Virus genome (UHGV): UHGV-0219734
Length of the DNA stretch: 20,304 nt
Direction: 5' to 3' (one strand)
Origin: a virus
Of the stretch, positions 18,786 through 20,304 are shown piece after piece. The notes below the pieces were generated by a model, which was not told the origin of the DNA, made no database searches, and worked only from the letters and a program-made list of their open reading frames with translations. A program made the translations under genes and the position numbers. Position 1 is the stretch's first letter; each line of letters begins with the position of its first letter.

Positions 18786-18959
18786 TAAATCCTGGTATTT
18801 GTAATGACTGGCTCTTATCCCAACGCAGCCCCTTACCGCGCGCAAGATGCTCAATATCAAGCATCAGCAATGAGATATTTAATCTGGATTCACTCCAGAA
18901 GTGATCACCACCCTGTCTACAGAGCCAGATGTGAAGGATGATGAGTAAAATTATCGCTA

Positions 18960-19427
18960 TCATCGAAGGCATTGCGTCCTGATGTATTCCTGAAGCGTTC
19001 TCAGTGCTGTTTGGTCGCTGATGATTCCGTCCCGGATACCGAGAACGTTTCGTCCAGCAACTGGAGAGAGTTCGACGGTGGCATCATTGCCCATGCCGGA
19101 GGCGCTGGAGGCTTCGGCTGAGGTTGGCACAGGGCATTTTCCTTTGACGAACACCCGACCACCATTATCAAGCTTGCGCCGAAGAGCATCATTTTCAGCT
19201 TTCGCATCAGCTAACTCCTTCGTGTATTTAGCATCGAGTGCATCAGCAGCACGCTGGCGCTGCTGCATGTCAGTAATGGTGGCGTTCGCCTTCTCCAGTT
19301 CTCTGGCATTTTTGTCGCGCTGGGCTTTGTAGGTAATGGCGTTATCACGGTAATGATTGACCGCCCACGACAGGCAGACGATGATGCAGATAACCAGAGC
19401 ATAAATAATCGCGGCGACTCTGCTCAC
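18960..19427 (-). CDS. Rz: i-spanin Rz
   Basis: Translation ...[54 protein letters not shown]...[19 protein letters not shown]... closely resembles lambda Rz as recalled (N-terminal TM then coiled coil). Probable GTG start at 19425-19427 overlapping the endolysin stop; the track's TTG at 19442 is an alternative. Confidence 0.85.
19001..19207 (-). CDS. Rz1: o-spanin Rz1, embedded out of frame within Rz
   Basis: 68-aa ORF entirely inside Rz in the +1 frame. [18 protein letters not shown]|CSSK has a lipobox, followed by a Pro-rich stretch [12 protein letters not shown]. Resembles lambda Rz1 (MLKLKMML...VVVGC...PPPPPAW) as recalled. Confidence 0.8.
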
Positions 19428-19957
19428 TGATCTATCCCCCAACAGGCTAATGCGCTTTCCTGGTCACGACGAATAACCTGCCCATAGCAGTTATTTGAAC
19501 GTATGCGGCAATCGCGCCCACCATCTTTTATCCACCAACGAATCGCCTCGCATGCACCCTTACGATCACCGGCATTCAGCCGCTTATAAAACGTCGACGG
19601 GAAACACTTACCGGGGCCAATGTTATAGGGACAAAATGACGCTATACCCGCTTTCTGTGGTTCGGTCAGAGGTACTTTAATATTGCGCTCCACCCATGCC
19701 AGCGCCTTATCACGTTCAATAGCGTTAACCTGGTCGCATTTTTCCTTCGACAGCTTCATTCCCGGTATGACGGGCTTACCATCCACCATTGTGGCACCAC
19801 GACAGATGGTCCATATACCGGAACCATCGCGGTATGCCGTAGTGTGGTTACCCTCTTTTTCATCCAGAAACTGGTCAAGTATTTGAGGAGCAGACGCGCC
19901 TGCAGCAATCAGCGCCAGAACAGCAGCTGACAGGCCGTATTTGATTTTTGCGCTCAT
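19424..19957 (-). CDS. SAR endolysin (phage lysozyme, T4-lysozyme-like GH24 catalytic domain)
   Basis: 177 aa. N-terminal weakly hydrophobic Gly/Ala-rich segment ([17 protein letters not shown]) typical of a signal-arrest-release domain. E-x8-D-x5-T catalytic spacing in [16 protein letters not shown]. Followed directly by Rz/Rz1. Confidence 0.9.
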
Positions 19958-20012
19958 GGATATTTATCAGGATGCTACCAATGAAAGATACTGGAAAGCC
20001 AACTGCAAAAAG

Positions 20013-20303
20013 CTAACAACCCGTAATCGAGTTATCAGAACTGTTAATTTTTATGGTATACCGCGCCTTTGAACAGGGGCGCGTTTCTGGCAACAGCTCG
20101 TCCCCTTCACATAACCCGGCAGCAACATCCAGGAAGACCTGTCTGATGCTCCTTCTGGCTGCTGCCTCATAAAACTCCAGCGCGGCACCTTCAACACGGT
20201 CCAGCGAGATGTCCAGGTCAAAAATTTCACCGTCAAAGCGTTTTTTGTCCCGTAACGCTAAAGTTACCGTAACTTTATTCTCAAAATTGCGGATCCCTTT
20301 CAC
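20013..20303 (-). CDS. Hypothetical protein upstream of the endolysin, possibly YdfR-like (DUF1327); 5' end may lie beyond the window
   Basis: Minus-strand ORF open to the window edge (first in-window codon GTG), 96 aa, no transmembrane segment, so it is not the holin. In the Qin prophage lysis cassette the gene between holin and lysozyme is ydfR. Family assignment is from memory of gene order, not sequence comparison. Confidence 0.4.
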   Translation of the reverse strand: MKGIRNFENKVTVTLALRDKKRFDGEIFDLDISLDRVEGAALEFYEAAARRSIRQVFLDVAAGLCEGDELLPETRPCSKARYTIKINSSDNSITGC

Positions 20304-20304
20304 A

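Follow-up and report, generated by a model that had tools for sequence, protein, structure and literature searches.

According to our analysis, the lysis genes close to the high-coordinate edge of the UHGV virus genome UHGV-0219734 almost certainly belong to a standard lysis cassette of the phage-21/Qin type in a lambdoid prophage, of which they form the downstream two-thirds. The whole stretch of 20,304 nucleotides (nt) is referred to below as the window. The cassette lies on its minus strand, and the gene in question, a member of the DUF1327/YdfR family, stands immediately upstream of a predicted signal-arrest-release (SAR) endolysin gene and is truncated at the window edge. The DUF1327 gene is real, but its product is probably not a component of the lysis machinery; the explanation that fits best as a whole, and which we hold with moderate confidence, is that DUF1327 represents an accessory gene of the moron type, inserted where the holin and endolysin genes meet.

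The lysis cassette and its holin

The entire window was 100% identical to a prophage of Escherichia coli TUM13754 and to GU2018_CL13, and the locus L001 showed 98.2% identity to it (BLAST). In the TUM13754 genome, the far end of the lambdoid prophage holding the window adjoins zur, yjbJ, dinF, and lexA, and the minus-strand order is essD, 4 nt, DUF1327, 55 nt, lysozyme, and Rz. The stop codon of the pinholin gene lies 28 nt outside the window edge and 4 nt before the ATG of the DUF1327 gene. The encoded holin is 71 amino acids (aa) long, has two transmembrane domains (TMDs), is 100% identical to K-12 EssD, matches the P21 holin S family PF04971 (E = 2e-35), and carries the MKSM dual start (Met1/Met4). 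Its TMD1 is weakly hydrophobic, with a hydropathy mean above 1.2 reached in TMD2 only.

The preliminary description of this DNA had reported that the window holds no holin, had proposed a Qin-like gene order with the holin located beyond the edge, and had advised a search further upstream for a two-TMD pinholin of 70–110 aa. All of this was borne out: no holin homologue was found inside the window (EssD and lambda S, used as tblastn queries, gave E ≥ 2), the protein just outside is of the expected kind, and the order is that of K-12 essQ-ydfR-rrrQ-rzpQ. The absence of the holin is thus an artefact of the window edge, which cuts the cassette short. Pfam matches were obtained for all four window proteins (DUF1327, Phage_lysozyme, Rz, and Rz1). 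This is a known arrangement, for which annotation exists in thousands of E. coli genomes as well as in K-12 Qin and isolated phages.

For phage 21, the lysis sequence of pinholin, SAR endolysin, and spanin is well established. By homology, the cassette described here would be transcribed within the late operon; the pinholin would accumulate and then depolarise the inner membrane, whereupon the inactive, membrane-tethered SAR endolysin would be freed into the periplasm, refold, and degrade murein, and the Rz/Rz1 spanin would then disrupt the outer membrane.

The DUF1327 gene and its family

The open reading frame (ORF) at 20013–20303 had been described as one of 96 aa with no hydrophobic segment. 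The reading frame is genuine, but it is not complete: in the identical genome the full gene encodes 104 aa (WP_029404484.1), its ATG lies 24 nt beyond the window with the first eight codons outside, and the GTG at 20303 is the internal Val9 and not a start codon. A profile search against DUF1327, which the preliminary description had suggested, gave a match to PF07041 that scored 114.2 bits (cut-off, 25; E = 3.3e-33) and spanned positions 9–90 of the 93 in the profile; the first eight residues are missing from the match because of the window edge. The protein also matched phrog_2735 (E = 7e-54). The lack of a hydrophobic segment was upheld, the best 19-residue hydropathy mean being 0.75; the protein is not a holin and is predicted to be soluble and cytoplasmic.

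The structure was modelled with AlphaFold2 from a 27-sequence alignment, which replaced an earlier, poor model built from 18 close homologues (predicted local distance difference test score, pLDDT, of 61); the first sequence was P0004, 97% identical to the 104-aa protein of the window. The core was predicted with pLDDT values of 81–95 and comprises antiparallel strands at residues 5–14, 18–27, and 34–43, followed by a helix at 50–73. Within it, G47, Y53, and E54 are invariant among the 27 aligned members, which range down to 23% identity. The tails differ across the family, giving total lengths of 103, 104, 114–116, 176, and 287 aa. Searches for similar folds returned nothing informative.

The family is very small, with 255 clusters at 90% identity, and the family profile collected 78 clusters at 50% identity among 1.84 billion representatives. 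Almost every member found in these searches belongs to Escherichia, Shigella, or Salmonella. No functional family was found for DUF1327 in Pfam, PHROGs, NCBIfam, or PADLOC, and the convergent ORFs described below likewise gave no PADLOC or NCBIfam match. In the literature, the name “DUF1327” was found in a single paper, where it serves only as an annotation, and E. coli “ydfR” was informative only in a study on RNase E. No paper was found that ties ydfR to rrrQ or to pinholins; ydfR and essQ were named together only in a genome announcement.

Two side observations concern the database entries of this family. Some proteins annotated as DUF1327 (P0137, P0141, and P0147) change frame after about residue 65–70 (...WMLLPGYVKG...), and the alternative frame of this type is also open in the window (20051–20236, minus strand). 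These entries give the impression of frameshifted copies or of errors in sequencing, as opposed to a second product. Furthermore, E. coli-type DUF1327/lysozyme loci occur in two metagenome-assembled genomes of Firmicutes, namely, L009 (labelled Veillonella parvula) and L011 (labelled Bacillota). The tblastn match statistics of L009 equal those of L008 and L010, which come from E. coli and E. ruysiae. Both contigs are probably mis-binned Escherichia prophage DNA.

DUF1327 as a probable accessory insertion

DUF1327 is found between S and R not only here but also in Perceval, H-19B, BP-4795, and many Stx1/Stx2c phages. However, cassettes of the same type lack it in 933W (S, 4 nt, R) and in K-12 DLP12 (essD abutting rrrD), and about 337 phage records carry a lysozyme at ≥90% identity, compared with only 101 that carry DUF1327; about 236 phage records have the same holin or lysozyme types without it. 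More distant DUF1327 proteins (72–94 aa) were found, in all nine contexts examined, either in lambda-like tail clusters or upstream of unrelated holins. The tail-cluster sites follow the tape measure gene or occupy the M/L, L/K, or I/J junctions, and for one distant type the unrelated holins begin some 550 nt further downstream. Given that similar cassettes do without DUF1327 and that its distant relatives reside in tail operons, its position alone should not make it a “lysis protein.” The family is neither confined to lysis cassettes nor similar to known regulators, either of which would have spoken for an antiholin or lysis regulator.

The second line of evidence is a convergent ORF. In each of the nine distant contexts, an ORF of 55–182 aa converges on DUF1327 and adjoins or overlaps its 3' end, with a spacing from −17 to +41 nt, and such an ORF also occurs in four Escherichia arrangement classes, which widens the overall range to −53 to +41 nt. 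The convergent partners fall into several unrelated families. In Perceval the ORF is intact (79 aa, phrog_21218), and tblastn with it against the phage collection recovered Perceval itself only. The 55-nt spacer between DUF1327 and the lysozyme gene in the window is the leftover of a deletion of about 315 nt relative to Perceval, and it retains on the opposite strand the last codons of the convergent ORF (Table 1). In H-19B and K-12 Qin, the cargo ORF was lost via different deletions. The combination of a constant DUF1327 with variable convergent cargo points to a moron-like insertion unit. DUF1327 would have arrived together with a small convergent cargo ORF, which would later have been deleted in this prophage.

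The third line concerns translation signals, the strength of which was expressed as the energy of the duplex with the anti-Shine-Dalgarno sequence. In 933W, the Shine-Dalgarno (SD) sequence GGGGAGAG in the 3' end of the holin gene serves endolysin R (−8.5 kcal/mol); in the window type, the same GGGGAGAG in the holin 3' end serves DUF1327 (−8.5 kcal/mol). A comparable site precedes DLP12 rrrD (−7.1 kcal/mol), and the K-12 ydfR start reaches −9.5 kcal/mol. In cassettes with DUF1327, the endolysin starts are essentially devoid of an SD sequence (window, −2.8 kcal/mol; Perceval, +0.3; Qin, +1.1). In cis, the insertion probably captures the holin-internal SD sequence and leaves the endolysin start without one, and we infer that it may lower or re-route endolysin translation. 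By stripping the endolysin of its SD sequence, the insertion may tune endolysin dosage and so the timing of lysis.

Finally, the ratio of nonsynonymous to synonymous polymorphism (pN/pS) was 0.53 for the DUF1327 core, whereas the holin (0.15) and lysozyme (0.09) of these loci had lower values, as estimated at very low divergence from loci chosen by DUF1327 similarity. The constraint on DUF1327 is not obviously as strong as that on the true lysis genes. Among loci L005–L091, those with near-identical DUF1327 (pS about 0.03) were compared; their holin and lysozyme alleles are divergent (pS of 0.44 and 0.31, respectively); this contrast suggests mosaic exchange around DUF1327, although the selection of loci by DUF1327 similarity biases the comparison.

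A possible link to RNase E

A two-hybrid screen recovered the first 72 codons of K-12 ydfR (PMC13232886, RNA Biol 2026). In that study, YdfR 1–72 bound Rne 1–597/598, the catalytic N-terminal half of RNase E, both in the two-hybrid assay and in StrepTactin co-purification, a DNase-resistant nucleic acid (RNA) co-purified with YdfR, and YdfR overexpression caused no growth defect (PMC13232886). The core encoded in the window is 80.6% identical to the K-12 YdfR core, and the RNase E-binding fragment corresponds to this conserved core. Judged by this similarity, the most likely activity of DUF1327 in trans would be to bind, late in infection, both RNA and the N-terminal catalytic half of RNase E. 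An RNase E-related function of DUF1327 is conceivable, but we regard it as tentative. Two other proteins that target the catalytic half of RNase E, T4 Srd and RapZ, can be regarded as functional analogues only; RapZ resembles K-12 YdfR in combining Rne binding with RNA co-purification (PMC13232886).

Points against this reading and alternative explanations

Several observations weigh against an accessory role of the kind proposed above. Among the Escherichia-type loci with an upstream ORF (IMG/VR and GTDB), DUF1327 follows an S21-type pinholin at 4 nt in 81 of 84, a sample consisting mostly of close relatives, and the 177-aa lysozyme type comes next in nearly all of them; this linkage could reflect a lysis-related role. 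A screen cited in PMC13232886 has linked ydfR to envelope integrity. The pN/pS of the core may mean that constraint is weak. As to RNase E, few transcripts were altered by YdfR overexpression, and the authors left open that a contaminant retained the RNA (PMC13232886).

The first two of these points would suit an alternative in which DUF1327 regulates, from the cytoplasm, the timing of lysis by the pinholin and the SAR endolysin, namely, as an antiholin or holin modulator like T4 RIII or P1 LydB that binds the charged cytoplasmic C-terminus of the pinholin. The strong SD sequence inside the holin gene also fits, as it makes it likely that the holin and DUF1327 are co-produced. We nevertheless consider this role unlikely, in view of the distant family members in tail-gene clusters away from holins, the many phage records with the same holin or lysozyme types but without DUF1327, the lack of likeness to known lysis regulators in Pfam, PHROGs, and NCBIfam, and the overproduction of YdfR in K-12 without a growth phenotype (PMC13232886). 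The preliminary description had been cautious about a role of the intervening protein in lysis; that caution stands, and the present evidence leans away from a dedicated role.

Another scenario assumes that DUF1327 works only with its convergent partner, for example, as a late antidote or regulator of a cargo expressed in the lysogen, so that the window copy, with its partner deleted, would be a functionless orphan persisting between two essential genes. The regular occurrence of the convergent ORF and the partner remnant in the window are consistent with this, as is a pN/pS of 0.63 in partner-less copies compared with 0.32 in the other, mostly partner-keeping classes, although this difference stems from few substitutions. 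However, the partner has been lost at least three times independently (window, H-19B, and K-12 Qin types) with the DUF1327 ORF left intact, the unrelated families of partners argue against a specific protein-protein pair, and the partner-less K-12 YdfR folds and binds RNase E (PMC13232886). This scenario, too, appears improbable. The same holds for a wider proposal, to which we assign a low probability, that DUF1327 is the constant half of a small mobile two-gene unit that inserts between late genes of lambda-like phages, and that its protein binds RNA or serves as an adaptor for RNase E. In such a unit, DUF1327 would share the orientation of the late operon, and the other half would be the variable convergent cargo ORF that meets or overlaps it at the 3' end.

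The predicted SAR endolysin

The preliminary description had assigned a SAR-type N-terminus to the endolysin, and our data agree with this. Residues 7–27 of the lysozyme carry no charge and consist of Gly, Ala, and Ser to 52%, and the best 19-residue Kyte-Doolittle mean is 1.78, compared with 2.11 for R21. The phmmer alignments to R21 (PDB 3HDE) and RrrD (4ZPU) start at residue 12 and thus extend into the N-terminal segment. The triad Glu-8aa-Asp-5aa-Thr is present, with E35, D44, and T50 at the triad positions of R21 and RrrD. The protein is 93.2% identical to 933W R and 93.8% identical to K-12 RrrQ, and 933W R has been listed as a SAR endolysin construct by the Young laboratory (PMC9239132). 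By analogy, the lysozyme would be a SAR endolysin with an uncleaved segment and release upon depolarisation.

The alternative, Sec export of the lysozyme with cleavage of a signal peptide at ASA/PQ and hence export without a holin, has in its favour the n-h-c signal-peptide layout of the N-terminus, with A-S-A at residues 21–23. Proline at position +1 blocks signal peptidase I, which makes cleavage at ASA unlikely, and P24, which occupies this position, is kept in all the variants seen (ASAPQ, ASAPE, and APAPD). The hydrophobic segment is Gly/Ala/Ser-rich and R21-like, the lysozyme gene is paired with a pinholin, and the highly similar 933W R is treated as a SAR endolysin (PMC9239132). We consider Sec export very improbable.

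The hairpin and terminator-like sites

The GC-rich hairpin noted previously does exist within the 3' coding region of DUF1327, but not at 20049–20072, where it had been placed: its arms, CGCGCC and GGCGCG, lie at 20062–20067 and 20078–20083, respectively, and no U-tract follows. The 66-nt hairpin region folds with z = −0.70, and 53 of 200 shuffled sequences folded just as well, so that its stability does not exceed chance. The hairpin as a regulatory element or terminator was rejected, with its chance-level fold, the lack of a U-tract, and the absence of a call by the terminator scan.

A terminator-like stem was observed at 20013–20038 (minus strand), with 11 pairs including G-T, followed by CTTTTTG, across the DUF1327 stop codon; it sits where DUF1327 meets the remnant of the convergent ORF. 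The region contains three terminator-like sites, which is no excess over the 1.7 ± 1.3 expected from shuffled sequences.

The last explanation, that the ORF is non-coding or decaying and the hairpin functional (for example, in terminating transcription or in regulating how the endolysin is expressed), could appeal to the relaxed pN/pS of about 0.5 and to the terminator-like pattern over the stop codon, but it is largely refuted by the Pfam match and the 78-cluster family with invariant residues, by the length of the shortest DUF1327 copy (at least 103 aa) among the 86 loci with a readable ORF, by the expression and purification of the K-12 protein (PMC13232886), and by the shuffling results for the hairpin and the terminator-like sites.

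Comparison with known systems

One of the closest known systems is that of the cryptic prophage Qin of K-12 (essQ-ydfR-rrrQ-rzpQ/rzoQ), which has the same gene order and the same 4-nt holin-DUF1327 junction. Identity to the cassette described here is 94% for the holin, 94% for the lysozyme, 81% for the DUF1327 core, and 61% for DUF1327 overall. The Qin YdfR has 103 aa and a tail that is unrelated after about residue 72; its gene overlaps rrrQ by 4 nt, whereas the window has the 55-nt spacer instead; and the Qin spanin is of the DUF2514 type, in contrast to the PF03245 Rz of the window.

The lambdoid coliphage mEp460 shows essentially no difference in the region: the order is DNA methylase, holin, DUF1327 (104 aa), 55-nt spacer, endolysin, Rz, and a small Rz-remnant ORF, with an identical spacer and an endolysin of 99.4% identity. 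The arrangement is thus present in an isolated phage.

Phage 21 (S21/R21/Rz/Rz1) and DLP12 (essD-rrrD) share with this cassette the P21 holin S family with its dual start, as well as the SAR N-terminus and triad positions of the endolysin. They differ from it in lacking DUF1327, with the holin abutting the endolysin, and in having a 165-aa endolysin type that is 34.5% identical to that of the window. The 933W cassette (S-R-ant-Rz/Rz1) has an S21-family holin of 82% identity and a 177-aa endolysin of 93% identity; there S and R are 4 nt apart without DUF1327, and the passenger gene ant lies between R and Rz.

The spanin genes and neighbouring sequence

The coordinates of all features are collected in Table 1. 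The best hydropathy mean of Rz is 2.73. Although the ORF list places its start at a TTG (19442, giving 160 aa), the GTG at 19427 is likelier and agrees with the RefSeq length; this GTG shares nucleotides with the stop codon of the lysozyme gene (GTGA), and its SD duplex is good, at −8.4 kcal/mol. In Rz1, a mature part rich in proline comes after the lipobox VVGC.

At 18823–18972 (minus strand), 3' of Rz and overlapping its end, RefSeq lists part of a second i-spanin (Rz) gene as a pseudogene; at the equivalent position mEp460 has a 50-aa hypothetical ORF, which gave no Pfam match. An Rfam search of the region gave no match at the gathering score. A match to the osmY RNA within Rz/Rz1 (19187–19266, minus strand) scored 23 bits, compared with a gathering score of 46.9 (E = 0.024), and is most likely due to chance.

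Table 1. Features of the lysis region and comparison sites. Positions refer to the window unless a locus is named.
Feature	Position	Strand	Basis
DUF1327/YdfR-family gene, cut by the window edge	20013–20304	−	PF07041; TAG stop at 20013–20015
DUF1327 core, residues ~1–73, three beta strands and a long helix	20109–20304	−	AlphaFold2, family alignment
DUF1327 C-terminal tail, residues 74–104, variable, predicted disordered	20016–20108	−	pLDDT <50 for residues 78–104
GC-rich hairpin in the DUF1327 tail-coding region	20062–20083	−	inverted repeat, 6-bp stem, 10-nt loop
DUF1327-lysozyme spacer, 55 nt	19958–20012	−	alignment with Perceval and mEp460
3' remnant of the convergent ORF, ~45 nt, last ~14 codons	~19972–20016	+	alignment with Perceval
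SD comparison site, window, 5' of the lysozyme ATG (19957)	19958–19980		
SD comparison site, L106	1975–2000		
SD comparison site, L105	2559–2580		
RrrQ/933W-R-type predicted SAR endolysin, 177 aa	19424–19957	−	PF00959, E = 1.1e-24
Putative SAR segment, residues ~7–27	19877–19939	−	hydropathy, composition
Catalytic E35	19853–19855	−	read from the translation
Catalytic D44	19826–19828	−	read from the translation
Catalytic T50	19808–19810	−	read from the translation
Rz i-spanin, 155 aa, N-terminal TMD	18960–19427	−	PF03245, E = 8.5e-30; RefSeq annotation in identical genomes
Rz1 o-spanin lipoprotein, in another frame within Rz	19001–19207	−	PF06085, E = 8.4e-21
Convergent ORF, L003	2812–3051	−	
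Convergent ORF, L089	329–601	−	
Convergent ORF, L007	3500–3766	−	
Convergent ORF, L077	2637–2951	−	
Convergent ORF, L092–L103			

Significance

The finding as such matters little, the cassette being widely annotated already. If the less probable two-gene unit were real, DUF1327 would handle the clash of sense and antisense RNA arising from a convergent insert, or would retarget the host RNase E late in infection, and RNase E modulators encoded by phages would gain a new class. In conclusion, the report on YdfR and RNase E, together with the conserved core and the variable convergent neighbour, gives this uncharacterised phage family a hypothesis that is concrete and can be tested.

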